Shown piece after piece: positions 1 through 20,000 of a DNA stretch of 20,000 nucleotides (its first letter is position 1; each line of letters begins with the position of its first letter). The notes beneath the pieces are model-generated. The model worked only from the letters and a program-made list of their open reading frames with translations, made no database searches and was not told the origin of the DNA. The DNA is from an uncultured virus (IMG/VR IMGVR_UViG_3300013297_000003) (lineage: Duplodnaviria > Heunggongvirae > Uroviricota > Caudoviricetes). The stretch is from the IMG/VR virus record IMGVR_UViG_3300013297_000003; one strand, given 5' to 3'. The position numbers and the translations under genes are program-made.

Positions 1-12
1 GAGCCTCTGACC

Positions 13-222
13 ATGCTGCACCCGCACCAAAACCCCGCCGTCTACTTCCTGATGGTCATGGTGATCATCAACCTGGCGGCGGTCTTTGTCTTCGACTACT
101 ACGCTTGGCGTTCCGAGATGGGCAGGGACGCCACCATCAGCGCCACGCTCAGCCGCCTGGCGCACGAGTGGCCGATCATCCCCCTGGGCGTCGGCCTGTT
201 TCTTGGCCATTTATTCTGGTGA
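13..222 (+). CDS. small membrane protein (2 hydrophobic segments), hypothetical
   Basis: 69-aa ORF with GC3-rich codons. Hydrophobic stretches AVYFLMVMVIINLAAVFVF and PIIPLGVGLFLGHLFW. The next gene starts 3 nt after the stop. Confidence 0.7.
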   Translation: MLHPHQNPAVYFLMVMVIINLAAVFVFDYYAWRSEMGRDATISATLSRLAHEWPIIPLGVGLFLGHLFW

Positions 223-1179: not shown

Positions 1180-1568
1180 TTCTTTTGATTATAAGTATTT
1201 TGGTCGGAATCATCGGCATCTGGCAGCGTTGCGTGCTTATGCGTGGCGTCACCGTCCTCTGGGCTATGCGCCATCCGACCGAGAAGCAGAGGAAGCAACT
1301 GACAGACCTCATTGCCGAGAAGGAAAAGGAAGTTGATTACGAGTCCAACGCCATGTACTTGGCCATCGAGGCTGACAAGGACAGCATCATCCGCGCGAAG
1401 GCCCAACAGATGCTCGACGCCGCCCAGGCCGCTGGCTGCAAGGCTCCGTCAGAGCCGAGCTGCATCGCCCTCTTCTGGGGCATGGCCACGACGCTGACAC
1501 TCAAGGACGTGCGCGGCATGATTGCCGAGTGCAACAAAGCGCAAAAGGCCAAGGCCAAGAAGAAATGA
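1173..1568 (+). CDS. hypothetical protein with N-terminal hydrophobic anchor
   Basis: 131-aa ORF with GC3-rich body; its stop overlaps the next ATG (ATGA at 1565-1568). The start codon is uncertain. Confidence 0.7.
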   Translation: MSILLIISILVGIIGIWQRCVLMRGVTVLWAMRHPTEKQRKQLTDLIAEKEKEVDYESNAMYLAIEADKDSIIRAKAQQMLDAAQAAGCKAPSEPSCIALFWGMATTLTLKDVRGMIAECNKAQKAKAKKK

Positions 1569-5302: not shown

Positions 5303-5649
5303 ACGTGTTCTCGAAACCATTCGTCCGCTTTAATCACAGCGTCAAACGGGTTATCGGCAAAGCGATCAGCTTCCGCCGACATAAGCCCGTCGTCGCCTCT
5401 CACGAACCACGATCCGTCTGGATAGGGCACGACGTACCATCTGCGCTTTACCATGATGGCCCAAGCATTGTGCTCGTCGGCAACGAGCTTCACCGCCGCA
5501 TCGCGTTCATCCGCCAACGGCCAGCGGCGGATGGCTTCGTATAGAGCGTCGATGTCGGCGATGCTCAGTCCATGCAGGCTGCCGTTGGGGTCGCACTCCG
5601 TTAGCTCTTGCAGCCGCTTGAGCATGTCGAGGGGTGGTTCTGGGGTCAT
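5281..5649 (-). CDS. hypothetical phage protein; paralogue of 8897-9259
   Basis: AAGGAG RBS upstream of ATG 5649. Shares LSIAD, NA..(M)xRxW and FAD-PF.A...AD.W..E..E with 8897-9259. Confidence 0.75.
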   Translation of the reverse strand: MTPEPPLDMLKRLQELTECDPNGSLHGLSIADIDALYEAIRRWPLADERDAAVKLVADEHNAWAIMVKRRWYVVPYPDGSWFVRGDDGLMSAEADRFADNPFDAVIKADEWFREHVEKGQTP

Positions 5650-5953: not shown

Positions 5954-6529
5954 CTACGCGGTCACAAGTTCTTTCTTCTTGTCATACTCTTTCATGGCCA
6001 GATCGGCAGCCTTACGGAGGCCGGCACAGACCCGTTTCTTGCCTGCCTCCCGCTGCTCATCAATCTTCTCTTGAGTGTCGCCTGGGTAGTATCTATCGCC
6101 TATCTGGTACTTGTTTTCGTTGTCGTTCCAGCCGGCAATGACGTTCTCCAGGTTGTGGCCCGATAGATCGGCACCACAGCCATCGACCTCTCCGAGCCGG
6201 TCCAGGGCCTTGACCAGGAGGTATTCCGCCTCGACCATCTCAAAGTGGAGCTTCTTGGCCTTGGCGCGTTCCTCCGCCTCCCCTGGATCATCGTCAACAT
6301 CACAATCAATTCCGTAGGCGTCCAGGTCGGGAAACTTCTCGCTCTGGTAATCGTCGGCGGTTATGGCTTTTCCTGTGATCGCGTAGCTAATGGCTCCGAT
6401 GGCGCAGAAGGAGCCGTTCTTCTCCAAGTCGCCGTTGACCCAGCCGGATTTCTCCAGCCGGTCCGCTGCCCTCCGTAAGTTCTTGGCAGCTCGTTTCCAG
6501 TTGATCTTCTTCTTGTCAAAGACGTTCAT
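5954..6529 (-). CDS. DUF6197-like phage protein
   Basis: LRRAADRLEKSGW..G....GSFCAIGAI..A ... WND ... LRKAA pattern. RBS AAGGAG and ATGA overlap. Confidence 0.7.
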   Translation of the reverse strand: MNVFDKKKINWKRAAKNLRRAADRLEKSGWVNGDLEKNGSFCAIGAISYAITGKAITADDYQSEKFPDLDAYGIDCDVDDDPGEAEERAKAKKLHFEMVEAEYLLVKALDRLGEVDGCGADLSGHNLENVIAGWNDNENKYQIGDRYYPGDTQEKIDEQREAGKKRVCAGLRKAADLAMKEYDKKKELVTA

Positions 6530-6831
6530 CGAGACTCTCCTTTGGGGGTTTTGGATAGCGTGATCGTGATGCCCGTGGGCAGGATGCTCCGGGTGGTGCC
6601 TCGGAGGCTGATCTTGCCCTTCTTGGCTAGGGCTTTTAGGTGGACGTAGGCCCCGTTGGGGTTCTTGAAACCGAAGTGGCTCTGGAGGTCGCGGACGCTG
6701 GCGGGGATGCCGCTGGCCAGTCGGGCGGTGATCACCCGGAGAACGTCCGCTTGCCTTGGGGTTAAGCCCTTAAGCTCCAGAAGGTGATCGAACGCCTTGC
6801 TGACCGCTCTGGCAATCCCTGTGGATTTCAC
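6526..6831 (-). CDS. LexA-type winged-helix DNA-binding protein lacking the peptidase domain
   Basis: LTPRQADVLRVI..GIPASVRDLQSHFGFKNPNGAYVHLKALAKKGKI..RGTTRSI closely resembles the LexA N-terminal domain. Only 101 aa, with no S24 domain. Confidence 0.85.
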   Translation of the reverse strand: MKSTGIARAVSKAFDHLLELKGLTPRQADVLRVITARLASGIPASVRDLQSHFGFKNPNGAYVHLKALAKKGKISLRGTTRSILPTGITITLSKTPKGESR

Positions 6832-7049: not shown

Positions 7050-7620
7050 GGCTTTTTCTTTCTCTTCTTAGGAGATGGTAGGTGCAGCAGCTTCCCACCG
7101 CCATCTATCTTCTTTTCCTATGAGGAGAGAAGGTGTGGTGGTAGAGGCTGCTGCAAACAATTTAGTGGGTCAAGCTAGTCGTATGCCTGCGGAGTCAGTT
7201 GGCCTTATGCCAGGTTTTTTTACTGATGGCTCTGGTGGACCAGGACGTAGCTGCGCATGCCGGATCGACTACCGGCCCGTTGCCTGGGAAAACCACAAAG
7301 GGAAACCTGTTTCAGCACCGACTAAATCCTCCCGCTCAAGGAATCCGCACCAGGCGAGGTTGTAAGCCTGGGACTCTACGTGCTCCGCTTTTTCGCCGGC
7401 GAGCGGTGCATCGAAACATAAACCGTCCTGTGGCTTTTTGCCACAGGGAGAACCCACTAATCCTCAGTGGTGTTCCTTGGGAGTTGTTTTCGGAGTTGCC
7501 AACAGAGGTGCTTCTGGATATGCTTTCTTCTGTTGGCACGTTTTTTGGGCAGCAGTTTTCTTTTCCGAGAGCTGCTGCCCAAGTCATTTCCACAGATTTG
7601 AATATATCTTTGTCACCGTT
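7050..7620 (+). other. long structured non-coding region (candidate replication origin or ncRNA)
   Basis: No credible ORF. At least seven stems or nested stems, with G-U pairs consistently on the + strand (see findings). Confidence 0.55.
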
Positions 7621-7626
7621 GCAAGA

Positions 7627-7950
7627 TCAAAATTTCACCTCCTTATCCTTCCACTCCCGCAGGAGCCGGACTCCTTCCTCCTGGGCATGCAAATCGCCAT
7701 CCAGCCACGCTTGGCAAAACACCTCCATCATCTCCATTTGTTCTTCCATGAATGCCTCGGCCTCTTGGCAGGCAGTTTGCATAACCTCCACGTTCATCTT
7801 GAGTTCCACGTTCTCCTTGGTGGCCTTGATGAGCTTGGCCAGGATCGAGGAGATATTCTTCCTGGAAGCCAGCCGGAGGAAATTGGTGTCATCGACTGTA
7901 TCGACGTTCACTACTTCCTGGGCCAGTTCGGTAAATTCCGCCATATTCAT
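7627..7950 (-). CDS. hypothetical helical protein
   Basis: 107-aa ORF with an AAGGA RBS. Confidence 0.75.
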   Translation of the reverse strand: MNMAEFTELAQEVVNVDTVDDTNFLRLASRKNISSILAKLIKATKENVELKMNVEVMQTACQEAEAFMEEQMEMMEVFCQAWLDGDLHAQEEGVRLLREWKDKEVKF

Positions 7951-7953
7951 TGT

Positions 7954-8154
7954 CTAGTCCTTATAGATGAAATCATGCCTTTCAAGCATGGATGCATGAT
8001 ACTCATACATGACTAAAGAGATCGTTTCGATCAGCGGCCTCTTGTCGGCTTCAGCAAAGGTTTCTTCCATCACCTTGACCTTGTGATACTTACAAAGCCG
8101 CTTCAGTTCGCTGACCACGTTATTGTGCAGTTCCTCAGCGCTGATTCCGTACAT
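7954..8154 (-). CDS. hypothetical protein
   Basis: 66-aa ORF with a GGAGG RBS. Confidence 0.7.
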   Translation of the reverse strand: MYGISAEELHNNVVSELKRLCKYHKVKVMEETFAEADKRPLIETISLVMYEYHASMLERHDFIYKD

Positions 8155-8332
8155 TTCGATCCTCCATGAGTAGGCGAATAATGTTGATTTGGGAGTTGGC
8201 GATGGCCGTGACGGCCATCGTCACGGCCAAGTTCAATCCGCATGGCTGCTTCTGGGCTTCGGCAGACAAAATCCTGATGGACTCCAAGATGGCGTTGGAG
8301 GTTTCCAGCGTCAGTTGCTCACCCTTGCTCAT
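8135..8332 (-). CDS. hypothetical protein
   Basis: 65-aa ORF with an AGGAG RBS. Confidence 0.65.
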   Translation of the reverse strand: MSKGEQLTLETSNAILESIRILSAEAQKQPCGLNLAVTMAVTAIANSQINIIRLLMEDRNVRNQR

Positions 8333-8335
8333 TTC

Positions 8336-8524
8336 TTAGCTCCTATGGGATTGGTACACGGTAGCCCTGGGCCTCCTGTAACTGGTGGCCCGGTTCATAA
8401 ATGCCAGAGACTTACGGTTTCGTAATACTTTGCCGCAGGCGGCGCTACAGGCCACCTGGGGGCGGAGCATCTTCCGCCTCTTGGGATCGGGTGTAAATTC
8501 TTGTTCACAGATAACGCACTTCAT
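8336..8524 (-). CDS. small zinc-finger protein
   Basis: MKCVICEQEF...ACSAACG (CxxC...CSxxC). AAGGAG RBS and ATGA overlap. Confidence 0.7.
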   Translation of the reverse strand: MKCVICEQEFTPDPKRRKMLRPQVACSAACGKVLRNRKSLAFMNRATSYRRPRATVYQSHRS

Positions 8525-8925
8525 ACCTGCTCCTTGGTCAGTGAAATACGGCAGTGAACAAAATGCCCGGCAATGTCCATGGACAACTCCATGCCGTCCG
8601 GCGCAGTCTTGTCGATCATAACATAGGCCCTCCTCAACAGGCTCTCGGCATTCTCGGCCCGCATCTTCATCCTCTGCATGGGCGAAGTTACCTTGTCGGG
8701 GTTAAAGCTATACCTCCGGGAGGAGCCAAGCTGGGCCAAGTATCCCCTCCTGGCCAAGCGGGCCATGAACATCCGTGCAGTATTCTGGCTCTTGAGGCCC
8801 ATGGCAAACTGCAAGTCCCTGGACGTGGGCATGTAGCCAAGCTCAAAGAACAGGTCTTCCAGGGTCGTCAGGACGATCTTGAGCTTGAGCGTCAGGTCAG
8901 GGCGACGGCGTTTCCTGTACTTCAT
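8521..8925 (-). CDS. second LexA-type winged-helix DNA-binding protein with helical C-terminus
   Basis: LTLKLKIVL..LGYMPTSRDLQFAMGLKSQNTARMFMARLARRGYL. Start placed at ATG 8925 (MKYRKRRR). No peptidase domain. Confidence 0.75.
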   Translation of the reverse strand: MKYRKRRRPDLTLKLKIVLTTLEDLFFELGYMPTSRDLQFAMGLKSQNTARMFMARLARRGYLAQLGSSRRYSFNPDKVTSPMQRMKMRAENAESLLRRAYVMIDKTAPDGMELSMDIAGHFVHCRISLTKEQV

Positions 8926-9259
8926 GGGCTTCAATGTTTTCGGCGTACCAGCGGTCAGCTTCGACGAGGGCGGTGAAGGGGTCAGCAAAATACATTTCCC
9001 CTCGCATCCACACGGCGGGCCATCTTTCACCAGTTTTTTGCGGGCAGGGAACGTACCATTTCTCGCCCTCTTCGTCCGGCACTTCTGATTCTGTTATTTC
9101 TGCCGTCCACCCCCGTCGCATGCACACGTCAAAAGCATTGCGAGCGAGAGCGATGAACTCGGCGTCGGCTATCGACAGGAAAGTACAGCCGGATTCCAAA
9201 TCCATCTTGAACGGCGCAGTTGTCCACGGTGCCGGCGTCAGATTGGCTACGTCCATCAT
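8897..9259 (-). CDS. Ead/Ea22-like phage protein; paralogue of 5281-5649
   Basis: TPAPW ... ADAEFIALARN resembles the Ead/Ea22 N-terminal signature (TPGPW...AEFIA). AAGGAG RBS. Confidence 0.65.
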   Translation of the reverse strand: MMDVANLTPAPWTTAPFKMDLESGCTFLSIADAEFIALARNAFDVCMRRGWTAEITESEVPDEEGEKWYVPCPQKTGERWPAVWMRGEMYFADPFTALVEADRWYAENIEAHEVQETPSP

Positions 9260-9618
9260 TCGGTCTCCTTGGGAGGCATTTTAAATCGCTCCAGTTCGCT
9301 TCTGAGCCACTCCATGAACTCATTTGGATTGGACATGGCCTGCATGGCCCTGGACCGCTCTACGAGGCTCCTATTGCGTCTATTGAGGGCATCAGCCTTA
9401 AGTTCTTCCAAGAGAGCATGGGCAGGGATGACGCCTTCGGGTATTTTAGCTATGCTTGAGATTGCTTCATCCACGCCTTCACCCTTCACCATGGCCTCCC
9501 AGATGGCCGCTTCTTTACCGTCGAACAACTTGACTCCATGTTCTTCTGCCCATTGGGCCATCTCCTTGAAAAGGGTACGGTTGCCCAGGAGCAAACCCAG
9601 GCAGATGGGTAAGAGCAT
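9256..9618 (-). CDS. hypothetical protein
   Basis: 120-aa ORF with CCAAGGAG RBS and ATGA overlap. Confidence 0.75.
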   Translation of the reverse strand: MLLPICLGLLLGNRTLFKEMAQWAEEHGVKLFDGKEAAIWEAMVKGEGVDEAISSIAKIPEGVIPAHALLEELKADALNRRNRSLVERSRAMQAMSNPNEFMEWLRSELERFKMPPKETE

Positions 9619-12665: not shown

Positions 12666-13595
12666 TTACACCCCGCACATGCCCATGCCACAGTCTGGTT
12701 CGGAGCAGTCGTCCAAGAGCGGAGCCAGTTCAAACAGCGGCCTTTTCTTGCGAGCTTCCTCTTTCTTGATCTCATCCTCGATGTCCACCATTTCCAGTGG
12801 GATGCAATTTCTATGGAGATAAAGGGTGTGCTTGACAATCGAGGACTCAAGCCGCAGCGAACGGTCCACTTCCACCGCCCTGGACCATTCTTTTTGGCTG
12901 TCCTTGGTCTTCTTCCATTCACTGGCCTGCTTATAGGGGCAGAACACGCAGGCCGAACGCGGCACCTCATGGGGCACGCGGCTTTTGAGGTAGTCCTTGC
13001 AATCTTCCCTGGTCATCTTCTGTTCAATCAGGGGAAATTGCGGGACAGCCCAGGGCAACTTGTCGAAGGTGCGGCTGATGCGCTCGGCCCGGCCTTTCTC
13101 ATCCCAGGAGATGCCGAAGAGCTGAACTATGCTGGTGCCTTTGGGAATCCTCTGGCGATATTTTAGCCCCAGGATTTGGTATCTGATAATCCGCTCCACC
13201 ACGTCAACCTTGTACTCCTTGGTGCATTGGCGTCTGACCATGCCTTCGTCCACCCTCTTGCCGGTGACAATTCGGGTTTCGTGGTGCTCGGCCATGAATG
13301 CCGGGATGGAGGCAAACCGGGTGCTGCCGTCCGCACCCGGTTTGGTTTTCTTGTTGCCACGGTGGTCACAGCCTTTGACCAGATCGTCGCCCAACTTTCC
13401 GGCTGTGCCCACTAGGATGATCGGCACCGGGGCGGGCAGCGTTCGCATCCAAGTTAGGTGCTCGTAAACGGCAGCAGGTTCTTCTTGGGTGTCTGCAAAG
13501 ACAGAATAATCCACCGGCTCAATCAGCCCTTCGTGGGCCATGATAAAGAGAGTGGTTGACTGAACACCCAGACCATTGTTTTGCACCCTAATCAA
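12666..13595 (-). CDS. PAPS-reductase-like PP-loop (adenine nucleotide alpha-hydrolase) protein
   Basis: GLGVQST PP-loop-like motif, FADTQEE, RQCTKEYKV, GISWDE, FPLIE, PRSACVFCPY and C-terminal CGMGMCGV. TTG start with AAGGAG RBS. Confidence 0.82.
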   Translation of the reverse strand: MIRVQNNGLGVQSTTLFIMAHEGLIEPVDYSVFADTQEEPAAVYEHLTWMRTLPAPVPIILVGTAGKLGDDLVKGCDHRGNKKTKPGADGSTRFASIPAFMAEHHETRIVTGKRVDEGMVRRQCTKEYKVDVVERIIRYQILGLKYRQRIPKGTSIVQLFGISWDEKGRAERISRTFDKLPWAVPQFPLIEQKMTREDCKDYLKSRVPHEVPRSACVFCPYKQASEWKKTKDSQKEWSRAVEVDRSLRLESSIVKHTLYLHRNCIPLEMVDIEDEIKKEEARKKRPLFELAPLLDDCSEPDCGMGMCGV

Positions 13596-15949: not shown

Positions 15950-16377
15950 CAATTACCTCCTGATTGTTCCTTGGTTCCAAACTGGCATAATCCGCAAAGG
16001 GTGGTTTCTGGGATCGTAGGTAAAGCACCGCAGTTCTTACATTCTGTGGACCAATCTGGGTCTGACGCCTCAACCATCTTGCCGTTGACTTCGATCTTCT
16101 TGTGAACCTTGGCTCTTCGTGAGTCGCGCAGAAAGATCATCGCGCCGCTCTTAATAAACTCCACATGGTCTTTGAATCTCTGGAAGTGGCCCAACTCGAC
16201 GTGGACGTTCTCTTTCTTGTGCTGGGCATAGAGCTGCTTTTTGATCTTGTCGAGGTTCTTGATGTAGGCGAACTGCCTTGCGGGGGAAAATCCAGCTGGC
16301 CCCTTTCGCTTCATCGCCTCGATCAGTAATGGATGGCCCAAGTTCTGGGCCTCCTGAATGCCGCTGTTGACGTTCAT
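15946..16377 (-). CDS. hypothetical protein with C-terminal zinc finger
   Basis: CKNCG...LCGLC motif and ATGA overlap. Confidence 0.75.
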   Translation of the reverse strand: MNVNSGIQEAQNLGHPLLIEAMKRKGPAGFSPARQFAYIKNLDKIKKQLYAQHKKENVHVELGHFQRFKDHVEFIKSGAMIFLRDSRRAKVHKKIEVNGKMVEASDPDWSTECKNCGALPTIPETTLCGLCQFGTKEQSGGNW

Positions 16378-16748
16378 AATCCGCGCTCCGTTTTGGTTAG
16401 GTGCTCCATGATCGTATCTGCCATTTTCTCAGCCGCCTCTTGGCACATCATCATGACGTAGCCACTGGTATTTCGTGGGTTGCCGTAGCAATTGCGCAAG
16501 ATGCCGCCTGCGATGAGTTCCGGGAAGAAGTCGATACACAGCGTAAACCGTGAGTGACGATGGTAGTGGCTCCACTCCATTTCGCGGATATAGGCTTTGA
16601 TGCCGGCCAGTTCGGAGTAGTCGCGGCGCGGCCTGGCAGCCTGCAAGTCCGCGATTTGCTGGTTGGCGGCGACGATGACTTGGTTCTTGACCTTGTTGTC
16701 CTTCACGAGCTTGCGCATGAAGGCCAACATCTTTTCACGAGACTTCAT
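16374..16748 (-). CDS. hypothetical protein
   Basis: 124-aa ORF with CCAAGGAG RBS. Confidence 0.75.
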   Translation of the reverse strand: MKSREKMLAFMRKLVKDNKVKNQVIVAANQQIADLQAARPRRDYSELAGIKAYIREMEWSHYHRHSRFTLCIDFFPELIAGGILRNCYGNPRNTSGYVMMMCQEAAEKMADTIMEHLTKTERGL

Positions 16749-16771
16749 GCGTTCTCCTTGGGAGGATTAAA

Positions 16772-16928
16772 TGCGTGCCGACTTAGGGCGATCATGTCTG
16801 CCGTGCTCCAAAATGCTTACTCAGATTGGCGGCAGCCTGGGTTGTCATCGTCTTTGCCCTGGATGGAGTAAGCTCCCTAGTGGCGTTGACGAGGCCCACC
16901 GCTCCCAGGATGAGCGTGTCGGCACGCA
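16772..16928 (-). ncRNA. unclassified structured RNA module (multi-stem, probable pseudoknots)
   Basis: 11-bp perfect closing stem TGCGTGCCGAC/GTCGGCACGCA enclosing several hairpins and crossing complementarities. Confidence 0.55.
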
Positions 16929-16934
16929 ATATGG

Positions 16935-16997
16935 TTCCCCGTGCCCAGATTATCCATCTAGGAATCGGCGACAAAGCCGATTGCATGCCACGGGGAA
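16935..16997 (-). ncRNA. three-way-junction RNA element in the tRNA-Asn 3' trailer
   Basis: TTCCCCGTG/CACGGGGAA stem enclosing AATCGGC/GCCGATT and CCTAGAT/ATCTGGG hairpins. Confidence 0.5.
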
Positions 16998-16998
16998 A

Positions 16999-17070
16999 AG
17001 GCAGCGGTTGGAATTGAACCAACGACAACTTCTTTAACAAAGAAGCGCTCTACCACTGAGCTACGCTGCC
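16999..17070 (-). tRNA. tRNA-Asn (GTT), CCA not encoded
   Basis: Complete cloverleaf: GGCAGCG TA GCTC AGTGGTA GAGC G CTTCT TT-GTT-AA AGAAG TTGTC GTTGG TTCAATT CCAAC CGCTGCC T. Confidence 0.92.
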
Positions 17071-17267
17071 AATCCTGCCGAGGTGGCCACCTGCGGCAGG
17101 TAGTTGGGAGAGATGAAATGGGACGTGTGAAACGCTCAAAGAAGCAGTTCTTAATGTCTCCGATTTCCACGGAGTAGCCAGAACGGCGACTGACCGCCAC
17201 AGCCGATTTATTTTCCCTCGCAACGCAGAGAGATGCAGAGCTGGACGAATCCAGATGCTTCTCTCAG

Positions 17268-17372
17268 TGGAAAGGGCAGGAGTCGAACCTGCGACCTGAC
17301 GCTTGCGGCGTCCGCTCTACCGTAGATGGTTTCGTTTGCAACCTCCACCATCCAACTCTGAGCTACCTTTCC
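17268..17372 (-). ncRNA. tRNA-like RNA with D-loop insertion and 5-nt anticodon loop
   Basis: GGAAAGG TA GCTC [42-nt D-loop] GAGC G GACGC CGCAA GCGTC AGGTC GCAGG TTCGACT CCTGC CCTTTCC A. All four stems pair perfectly. Confidence 0.85.
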
Positions 17373-17376
17373 AAAT

Positions 17377-17462
17377 CCCGTCTGTCAGCGCTTATGCCAC
17401 CCAGTGACGGGCCTGGGCTGGAACGCACTATGCACATCTGCGTCGGCTACGCCAGCGCTGAC
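17377..17462 (-). ncRNA. unclassified multi-branch RNA module with probable pseudoknot
   Basis: GTCAGCGCT/AGCGCTGAC closing stem with three internal hairpins. Loop CCCGTC is complementary to the GACGGG just 3' of the closing stem. Confidence 0.5.
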
Positions 17463-17560
17463 TTGGACGACCGAGAATCGTGGCAAGCCGGACTACTGAA
17501 AGGCACAGCTAAAAGCAGCCGCTCCCACCTTAGCGCCTCACGGTTGGCGCTTCCACCGAA

Positions 17561-19518: not shown

Positions 19519-19743
19519 CTATAGACCTCCTGTTTTGTAAATGACACGGCCTCGATCAAAACGGCGTTTGTCATTTGAGGCTGGTTTAGATTGTCGTTTT
19601 GGCTGGCAGGTGATGTGGCGAAGACGGTCGCCGTTTCCTTGGCGAGTTACTAATTCGCCTTCCGTGAATTTCTTGCCGCACACAAGGCACTGCCACGGCT
19701 TTTCAGGGTTTTTGGGTTTGTATGGATAGACAGGATTATCCAT
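19519..19743 (-). CDS. small zinc-finger protein
   Basis: CLVCGKKF...HITC motif and AGGAG RBS. Confidence 0.7.
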   Translation of the reverse strand: MDNPVYPYKPKNPEKPWQCLVCGKKFTEGELVTRQGNGDRLRHITCQPKRQSKPASNDKRRFDRGRVIYKTGGL

Positions 19744-19773
19744 GGGGATGCTCCTAGTAGGTTTTGATATGGT

Positions 19774-20000
19774 CTAATAAGACCCCGACCTCGACCTCGA
19801 CCTCGACCTCGACCCCGACCTCGACCCCGACCTCGACCACGACCTCGACCACGACCCCGACCTCGACCACGACCTCGACCACGACCTCGACCACGACCTC
19901 GACCACGACCTCGACCACGACCACGACCCCGACCTCGACCCCGACCTCGACCCCGACCTCGACCCCGACCTCGACCACGACCACGACCCCGACCCCGACC
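19774..20000 (-). CDS. 3' part of a Ser-Arg/Ser-Trp/Ser-Gly dipeptide-repeat protein (5' truncated)
   Basis: Frame TCG-[AGG/TGG/GGG] ends ...SRSGSY* right at the repeat boundary, 17 nt before the next RBS. Similar SRSWSG-repeat ORFs occur in environmental phages. The frame is not proven. Confidence 0.55.
   Translation of the reverse strand, partial: SGSGSWSWSRSGSRSGSRSGSRSGSWSWSRSWSRSWSRSWSRSWSRSGSWSRSWSRSGSRSGSRSRSRSRSGSY
19781..20000. repeat. tandem hexamer repeat CGACC[T/C/A], about 36 copies, running off the window end
   Basis: Directly visible; only the sixth position of each unit varies. Confidence 0.98.

Follow-up and report, generated by a model that had tools for sequence, protein, structure and literature searches.

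A stem-closed candidate RNA module between tRNA-Asn and an early-region gene of an uncultured tailed phage

The 20,000-nt stretch of the uncultured virus record IMGVR_UViG_3300013297_000003 (IMG/VR; Caudoviricetes) described here, referred to as the window, has 55% G+C and resembles the replication or early region of a phage. It encodes a superfamily 2 (SF2) helicase whose best match in a cultured phage is 32–34% identical, a phosphoadenosine phosphosulfate (PAPS)-reductase-like protein, proteins with helix-turn-helix (HTH) and LexA DNA-binding domains, and many open reading frames (ORFs) without a family. Between 8.5 and 20 kb every gene is encoded on the minus strand, as are both of the tRNA-type genes, and there are ~800 nt without a credible gene between the end of a 117-amino acid (aa) ORF (17561) and the ATG of a 124-aa gene (16748). 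Read along the minus strand, this gap holds a 188-nt leader, a tRNA look-alike, a 197-nt spacer, tRNA-Asn, a 63-nt Y-shaped fold (the Y module) and a 157-nt element, which is the subject of this report (Table 1). The element is at the 3′ end of the gene-free run and begins 71 nt past tRNA-Asn, with one folded module between them. RNA positions within it are numbered such that position p corresponds to window position 16929 – p, with RNA 1–157 running from window 16928 down to 16772.

An initial annotation made from the sequence alone described the element as a compact RNA with an 11-bp closing stem and three crossing pairings, the density of which was considered typical of ribozymes and riboswitches, and noted that it ends ~12 nt before the ribosome-binding site (RBS) of the gene at 16374–16748. 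The segments that it listed, including the 11-bp closing stem and the hairpins, are all present on the minus strand where it placed them, and the distance is correct: the RBS (AAGGAG) is at 16759–16754, 12 nt beyond the end of the closing stem (P1). The observation is accurate as sequence and its statistical weight is modest. Our preferred but tentative interpretation is that the element is the last self-folding, stem-closed and nested module of a tRNA-array or leader transcript, serving as a structured 5′ leader or as a released stable RNA.

The predicted fold is modular. The minimum free energy (MFE) structure of –64 kcal/mol has a z score of –3.11, with two of 200 shuffled sequences folding equally well, and P1, P2 and P6 pair with probabilities of 0.92–1.0 in the nested ensemble, with the exception of the terminal U-A pair of P1 (0.54). 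When a 911-nt transcript is folded, P1 retains a probability of 0.82–1.0 and the element makes no pairs outside itself. The likely fold in these models is a nested one, consisting of P1, P2, an arm closed by UCGUC/GACGA and the CUGCCG/CGGCAG arm (P6). The description of a compact structured RNA thus holds to the extent that an 11-bp stem closes it with a probability near one and that it is non-coding, but not for the crossing pairings, which are not favoured. We note that the P2 hairpin resembles a tRNA D-arm by eye only, with no match to a tRNA model.

Support for the element being a module of an array transcript comes from its position in an ORF-free run of ~800 nt on the same strand as tRNA-Asn and the tRNA look-alike, and from the neighbouring modules (the Y module and spacer), which are clearly structured. 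The Y module, closed by a 9-bp stem that starts 1 nt past tRNA-Asn and is followed by CCA, contains two 7-bp hairpins; it ranks in the top 0.2–0.5% of 5696 70-nt windows and folds better on the minus than on the plus strand, and on these predictions makes a better candidate for a structured RNA than the 157-nt element does. The whole 259-nt leader (z –3.57, with none of 200 shuffles equal) is predicted to fold as two closed domains, with CUCC and GGAG forming a further hairpin of 4 bp at the RBS. The modules tile the gap, closed end to end with linkers of 1–6 nt, and P1 spans nearly exactly the interval from the Y module to the RBS. In the fold of the 911-nt transcript, tRNA-Asn, the spacer and the Y module also have no outside pairs, and the tRNA look-alike has one.

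A simple scheme can be drawn from the minus-strand order of tRNA look-alike, three hairpin modules, tRNA-Asn, Y module, element, RBS and 124-aa gene. The array would be read as one transcript, from which the tRNAs would be released by RNase P and 3′-end processing, and the flanking modules would fold alone, hence leaving tRNA folding undisturbed. The modules may then be retained as a base-paired 5′ end of the mRNA, shielding the processed end from 5′-end-dependent decay, or alternatively may be released as a stable small RNA, as are T4 RNAC and RNAD. Transcription and processing of the element, and any effect on stability or translation, are what such a scheme would entail. Because the element ends just ahead of the RBS, a cis-acting leader role is reasonable, in line with the cis-regulatory possibility raised in the initial annotation.

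Table 1. Features of the 157-nt element and its surroundings (window coordinates and RNA positions).
Feature	Window coordinates	RNA positions	Strand	Remarks
157-nt candidate module	16772..16928	1-157	-	Stem-closed fold; MFE -64 kcal/mol; no Rfam match
P1 5′ arm UGCGUGCCGAC	16918..16928	1-11	-	Perfect 11-bp inverted repeat with 16772-16782
P1 3′ arm GUCGGCACGCA	16772..16782	147-157	-	Terminates 12 nt ahead of RBS
P2 hairpin CGCUC-AUCCUGG-GAGCG	16900..16916	13-17/25-29	-	Pairing probability 0.92-0.95
P3 GUGG/CCAC		30-33/46-49	-	Segments present
P4 UAGGG/CCCUA		50-54/141-145	-	Segments present
P5 5′ arm GCUUACUC	16866..16873	56-63	-	Perfect 8-bp complement of 16815-16822; proposed crossing helix
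P5 3′ arm GAGUAAGC	16815..16822	107-114	-	Within P6 loop
P6 hairpin CUGCCG...CGGCAG	16798..16835	94-99/126-131	-	Probability 0.96-0.99; extended in MFE with CCAA/UUGG
MFE arm closed by UCGUC/GACGA	16848..16892	37-41/77-81	-	In MFE and centroid; inner GGAG/CUCC hairpin
tRNA look-alike	17268..17372		-	Rfam tRNA 46.1 bits; missed by default ARAGORN
tRNA-Asn (GTT)	16999..17070		-	Rfam 73.7 bits; ARAGORN
Y-shaped three-way junction	16935..16997		-	MFE -32.8, z -4.48, 0/200 shuffles equal
RBS region	16754..16764		-	Possible pairing of CUCC (16764-16761) with GGAG (16757-16754) in AAGGAG
Downstream gene, 124 aa	16374..16748		-	No Pfam or PHROG family

The crossing pairings are real complementarity in the sequence and are favoured by none of the analyses made here. 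P3, P4 and P5 have probabilities of ~0 in the nested ensemble, and the nested helices of the initial annotation (P1–P4 plus P6) amount to –44.4 kcal/mol against the MFE of –64. As separate duplexes, P5 contributes –10.3 kcal/mol, CCUGGG/CCCAGG –10.0 kcal/mol and UCGUC/GACGA –4.8 kcal/mol, which together with the nested helices gives an estimated –69.5 kcal/mol before any pseudoknot penalty is applied; with typical penalties the estimate lies well above –64, and by this crude reckoning the nested fold would be more than 10 kcal/mol better than the knotted one. The segments for an H-type pseudoknot are present, but P5 does not appear as a second layer, and refolding with the MFE pairs masked gives no second-layer helix at all. 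Complementary segments for all three crossing pairings therefore exist without any crossing helix being stable over the MFE. CCUGG (RNA 20–24) is complementary to CCAGG at both 67 and 89, and can form a 6-bp pairing with 88–93; UCGUC/GACGA, which had been taken as a tertiary contact between a loop and a strand, is an ordinary nested helix in the MFE structure.

These data bear on the alternative that the element is a compact pseudoknotted regulatory RNA (a ribozyme, riboswitch or protein-binding operator) controlling the gene 12 nt downstream, with P5 crossing P6 and the two hairpin loops docked on the 64–93 strand. All of its pairings exist, with the energies given above for the P5 and CCUGGG/CCCAGG duplexes, its crossing-pair count is above that of 990 of 1000 interior shuffles, and its site directly upstream of an RBS fits, phage pseudoknot operators being known, such as that of T4 gene 32 in the account of PMC3014915. 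We nonetheless consider it improbable, given the folding energies and masked refolding above, a density of crossing pairs that is only at the 5% level of the window background, and the failure of any ribozyme or riboswitch model to match at E≤10. It is equally improbable that the element is a knotted, phage-specific compact RNA of an undescribed class at the junction of the tRNA array and early operon, which might act as a translational switch responsive to a ligand or protein, or as a self-processing separator of tRNA and mRNA. None of the tests run supports a pseudoknot, ribozyme or riboswitch reading.

Searches of RNA families agree with this. With Rfam 15 there are two matches above the gathering threshold in the whole window, both to tRNA and neither on the element, and at E≤10 over 16600–17500 there are six matches, none of which (0/6) overlaps 16772–16928; the element matches no Rfam family, the search for which the initial annotation had proposed as a check. 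None of the models for self-cleaving ribozymes (hammerhead, twister, twister-sister, pistol, hatchet and HDV-like) matches at E≤10, and the same is true of riboswitch models. The hammerhead core is CUGANGA...GAAA, and this is not present in the element sequence. As a possible expression platform for a riboswitch we find only the 4-bp CUCC/GGAG hairpin at the RBS, and this context recurs before the gene at 9256. ARAGORN with default settings reports only tRNA-Asn in the window, and neither a tRNA nor a transfer-messenger RNA (tmRNA) in the element.

Other candidates of known types were considered and rejected. For an intron-bearing tRNA or a tmRNA, relaxed ARAGORN settings give poor models that span the neighbours with 'introns' of 126–285 nt, and no tmRNA. 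The prohead RNA (pRNA) of phi29 uses loop-loop pairing and Rfam holds a pRNA family; there is no Rfam model on the element at E≤10, and the genome is far larger than that of a phi29-type phage (the longest contig encoding the 124-aa neighbour protein is 81 kb). For guides of the retron or omega-RNA types, there is no reverse transcriptase, TnpB or IscB among the ORFs scanned.

The element also overlaps an open frame, a 64-codon ORF (16986–16795, minus strand) that starts just past tRNA-Asn and covers most of it. This could be a small protein gene in view of its ATG start, a hydrophobic stretch and the dense coding of phage genomes, but we think this very improbable. It lacks the CCAAGGAGA-type RBS of the neighbouring genes, its codon score of –0.054 compares with 0.232 ± 0.121 for coding chunks and –0.263 ± 0.108 for off-frame ones, and its G+C by codon position (0.52/0.58/0.61) departs from that of the genes (~0.57/0.41/0.68). 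No homologue of it was found, and the protein collection lacks the ORF product itself although it contains the 124-aa neighbour.

Several observations weigh against the element being a selected module of a minus-strand transcript. Ranked by MFE with 3970 windows from the two strands, the element stands at 2.8% raw and 5.4% when adjusted for G+C, and chance would give about one long-range 11-bp helix in 20 kb. Folding of the plus strand is more favourable than that of the minus strand (–71.2 versus –64 kcal/mol; z –3.67, with none of 200 shuffles equal), and the minus-strand MFE structure has no G-U pairs among its 49 pairs, compared with five among 53 for the plus strand. No promoter or terminator was found that would define a transcript. 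There is no homologue in the phage, plasmid, viral, metagenome or genome collections, and thus no covariation support, and the ten closest loci encoding relatives of the 342-aa upstream neighbour (43–54% identity) have neither tRNAs nor ORF-free gaps directly downstream.

The first of these points raises the question of whether the pairing exceeds chance. Of 2000 dinucleotide-shuffled versions of the element, six contain an 11-bp perfect helix and 18 a second helix of at least 8 bp, with 9.2 ± 2.8 5-bp complements per shuffle. When P1 is held fixed and only the interior is shuffled, the longest-helix value (at least 8 bp) is reached in 88 of 1000 shuffles and the helix count (helices of at least 5 bp) in 83 of 1000; the crossing-pair count is matched in 10 of 1000 and the number of greedily paired bases in 29 of 1000. 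The window itself is a more demanding background, and of 1985 overlapping 157-nt windows, 1.9% equal or beat the element for longest helix, 5.0% for helix count, 5.0% for crossing pairs and 1.2% for greedily paired bases. Perfect helices of at least 11 bp with a span of no more than 200 nt number four in the window, compared with 0.70 ± 0.84 in 60 Markov simulations, and the other three are short hairpins with spans of 27–38, which account for the entire excess. With such a modest rank against its own window, picking the most striking spot in 20 kb could land here without any biology, although the non-coding location abutting tRNAs makes the spot less trivial.

An alternative explanation is chance self-complementarity in an unselected spacer between tRNA-Asn and the next gene, perhaps containing an unrecognised promoter or signal, and we regard this as almost as likely as a module of the array transcript. 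It accommodates the placing of the element only within the top 1–5% of the window's own 157-nt segments, the 0.70 helices of at least 11 bp expected per window with an excess confined to short hairpins, the abundance of 5-bp complements in shuffles, the better folding of the plus strand, the absence of G-U pairs from the minus-strand fold, and the lack of a homologue. It fits less well with the rarity of the 11-bp and second helices in full shuffles and of the crossing-pair count and greedy pairing in interior shuffles, with the near-exact fit of P1 to the interval that separates the Y module from the RBS, and with the clear structure of the neighbouring modules.

The strand comparison introduces two further alternatives. 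The plus-strand fold is a neat four-way junction, and its five G-U pairs correspond to C-A mismatches on the minus strand, whereas for the tRNA look-alike, tRNA-Asn, spacer, leader and Y module the minus strand gives the better fold in each case. Better folding of the plus strand where the neighbours favour the minus strand argues either against selection of the minus-strand fold or for a strand-symmetric signal, at the DNA level or antisense. The plus strand could be the functional one, giving an RNA antisense to the leader of the 124-aa gene, as its folding energy, its junction and the gain of G-U pairs would suggest. The minus-strand orientation of the genes from 8.5 to 20 kb and of both tRNA-type genes makes this an unlikely arrangement; moreover, no plus-strand promoter was found, and the two plus-strand terminator-like sites are within shuffle expectation (3 found versus 1.6 ± 1.1).

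The second of these is a DNA-level element, with the 157 bp bounded by perfect 11-bp inverted repeats forming an invertible switch, a small transposon relic or protein-binding half-sites. Perfect repeats and pure Watson-Crick helices do point to a strand-symmetric signal, and the position directly upstream of an operon is suitable, but the likelihood appears slighter still. Among 28 ORFs scanned there is no recombinase catalytic domain and only weak HTH matches, and there is no promoter-like site inside the element on either strand, as would be expected of an inverton. The flanks (...CATAT and TTTAAT...) show no target-site duplication of the sort left by a miniature inverted-repeat transposable element (MITE). 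The P1 arm sequence is unique in the window, and the element is present as a single copy in the window and all of the loci searched.

Relatives of the element were sought in several ways. Comparison of 16300–17500 with 50,697 phage records (T4 included) by blastn gave nine records with matches to tRNA only, and comparison of 16740–17000 with plasmids gave one spurious 49-nt match within a restriction gene. Exact patterns from the element (a 29-mer and a central 20-mer) and from tRNA-Asn (a 21-mer) have no matches in viral contigs. When the 124-aa neighbour was used as an anchor nothing was found in viral, metagenome or genome contigs, and the 342-aa upstream neighbour gave 13, 80 and 9 loci at 33–54% identity; blastn and nhmmer searches for the element over the first 93 of these found nothing. 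A covariance model (R1), built from the single sequence entered twice with its MFE structure, identified only the element itself in the window and 95 of the 102 loci (500,361 bases), and nothing in five whole IMG/VR records. Seven loci were left out of the R1 search (L023, L024, L032, L047, L056, L079 and L095), six of which share their contigs with searched loci; the seventh, L024, is on a different contig and has match statistics identical to those of L023. The RNA array is absent from the ten closest loci of the 342-aa protein and is particular to this lineage.

A 21-mer from the tRNA look-alike has a single match in viral contigs, in L103, which has only 30 nt of the T-arm and acceptor in common with the window and no match to R1. 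L103 is an otherwise unrelated IMG/VR record (49 kb, 10% complete) with no Rfam tRNA at the gathering threshold, and the match is in a differing odd tRNA-like unit (1413–1522, plus strand) whose acceptor and T-arm are those of the look-alike (30 nt at 93%). This unit is within a ~670-nt ORF-free stretch, beside a second tRNA-like unit. The look-alike in the window carries an inserted 38-nt hairpin in its D region, and a 5-nt loop closes its anticodon stem. The 197-nt spacer that follows it (17071–17267, minus strand) is predicted to form three closed modules (z –3.72). Among these are a tetraloop hairpin, CUGGA-UUCG-UCCAG, and a second hairpin, CCUGCCG...CGGCAGG, which stops 3 nt ahead of tRNA-Asn.

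Four contigs are recorded as encoding the identical 124-aa protein. Comparison of this protein with the protein atlas gives no functional lead (the top feature score is 0.83 and the top TM 0.53), and among 5.8 billion proteins it has a single homologue, P0002, which is encoded on a 1017-nt contig and is 43% identical by BLASTP and 47% identical in a MAFFT alignment. The first 15 residues of the two (window 16704–16748) are identical, which hints that the leader and gene start are shared as a block, and suggests a recombination junction just inside the 124-aa gene with the upstream block in common with P0002. The start context CCTCCCAAGGAGA-N5-ATGA is present at 16745–16765 and again at 9256–9276, placing an anti-Shine-Dalgarno (SD)-like CUCC 3 nt ahead of the SD sequence at two genes, and there are related CCAAGGAGA copies at 5646, 13601 and 15701.

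There are several other features of note elsewhere in the window. The strongest folds are at 7083–7155 and 7497–7582 on the plus strand, where a 70-nt imperfect hairpin has an energy of –40.8 kcal/mol (G+C-adjusted z –5.3) and there are also perfect 10- and 11-bp hairpins. These folds are in a region of lower G+C past the minus-strand gene that ends at 6831, together with plus-strand ORFs at 7075–7365 and 7199–7957, and are probably terminators or operators. There is a perfect 11-bp hairpin at 8203–8229 in the 8016–8521 gap, and a perfect 12-bp hairpin at 13313–13344 within the PAPS-reductase-like gene. Two small proteins with LexA DNA-binding domains are encoded on the minus strand at 6526–6831 and 8521–9030 (Pfam E values of 3e-13 and 5e-7). 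Finally, tandem repeats of the ACGACCTCGACCACGAC type at 12- and 18-nt spacing occupy 19739–20000, with 12 in-register copies, and continue beyond the end of the window; they are probably a region coding for repeat peptides.

Three known systems offer comparisons. Like the pseudoknotted translational operators of phage genes, of which that of T4 gene 32 is an example (PMC3014915), the element is predicted to be structured and lies directly ahead of a translation start, and its sequence allows an H-type pseudoknot to be drawn (PMC10690425). It differs in that the pseudoknot here is not energetically favoured and that the downstream protein has no known family. The Y module and the 11-bp stem of the element would provide a base-paired start for a processed mRNA, a property shared with leaders of the ompA type. 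Such leaders are 5′-terminal stem-loop stabilisers of bacterial mRNAs, and are simple hairpins at the extreme 5′ end; the element differs in being a 157-nt multibranch second domain.

The closest parallel is with RNAC (species 1, 139 nt) and RNAD (species 2, 119 nt) of T4, which are experimentally detected, whereas the element is known here from its sequence alone. The T4 RNAs are transcribed from the tRNA region and have roles given as unknown in PMC3014915, with functions still termed unknown in the account of a 2022 omics paper (PMC9697503). The element has no sequence similarity to rnaC or rnaD, and a T-arm that is tRNA-like (GGGUUCGAAUCCC) is found in rnaC but not in the element, which adds to the points against its being an RNA of this kind. 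However, rnaC and rnaD are themselves below every Rfam threshold, such that the missing Rfam match of the element is no argument against such an RNA, and rnaD is not unusually stable (z –0.83). If the interpretation as a module of the array transcript is correct, the element would add to the cases in which phages occupy the termini and gaps of their tRNA arrays with RNAs that fold by themselves and are closed by a stem, the function of which has been obscure from the first description of RNAC and RNAD onwards. Were a clear role to emerge, for example in insulating tRNA folding, in protecting the processed 5′ end of the downstream mRNA or as a decoy, it would account for a feature that recurs among phage genomes. 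Alone, the present element is an orphan, with its value as a data point rather than a discovery. The likeness to T4 is one of kind and of layout: all are non-coding, non-tRNA segments of similar size directly downstream of the last tRNA and on its strand, with rnaD in T4 starting 1 nt past tRNA-Arg and rnaC following 6 nt later, much as the Y module and the element follow tRNA-Asn.

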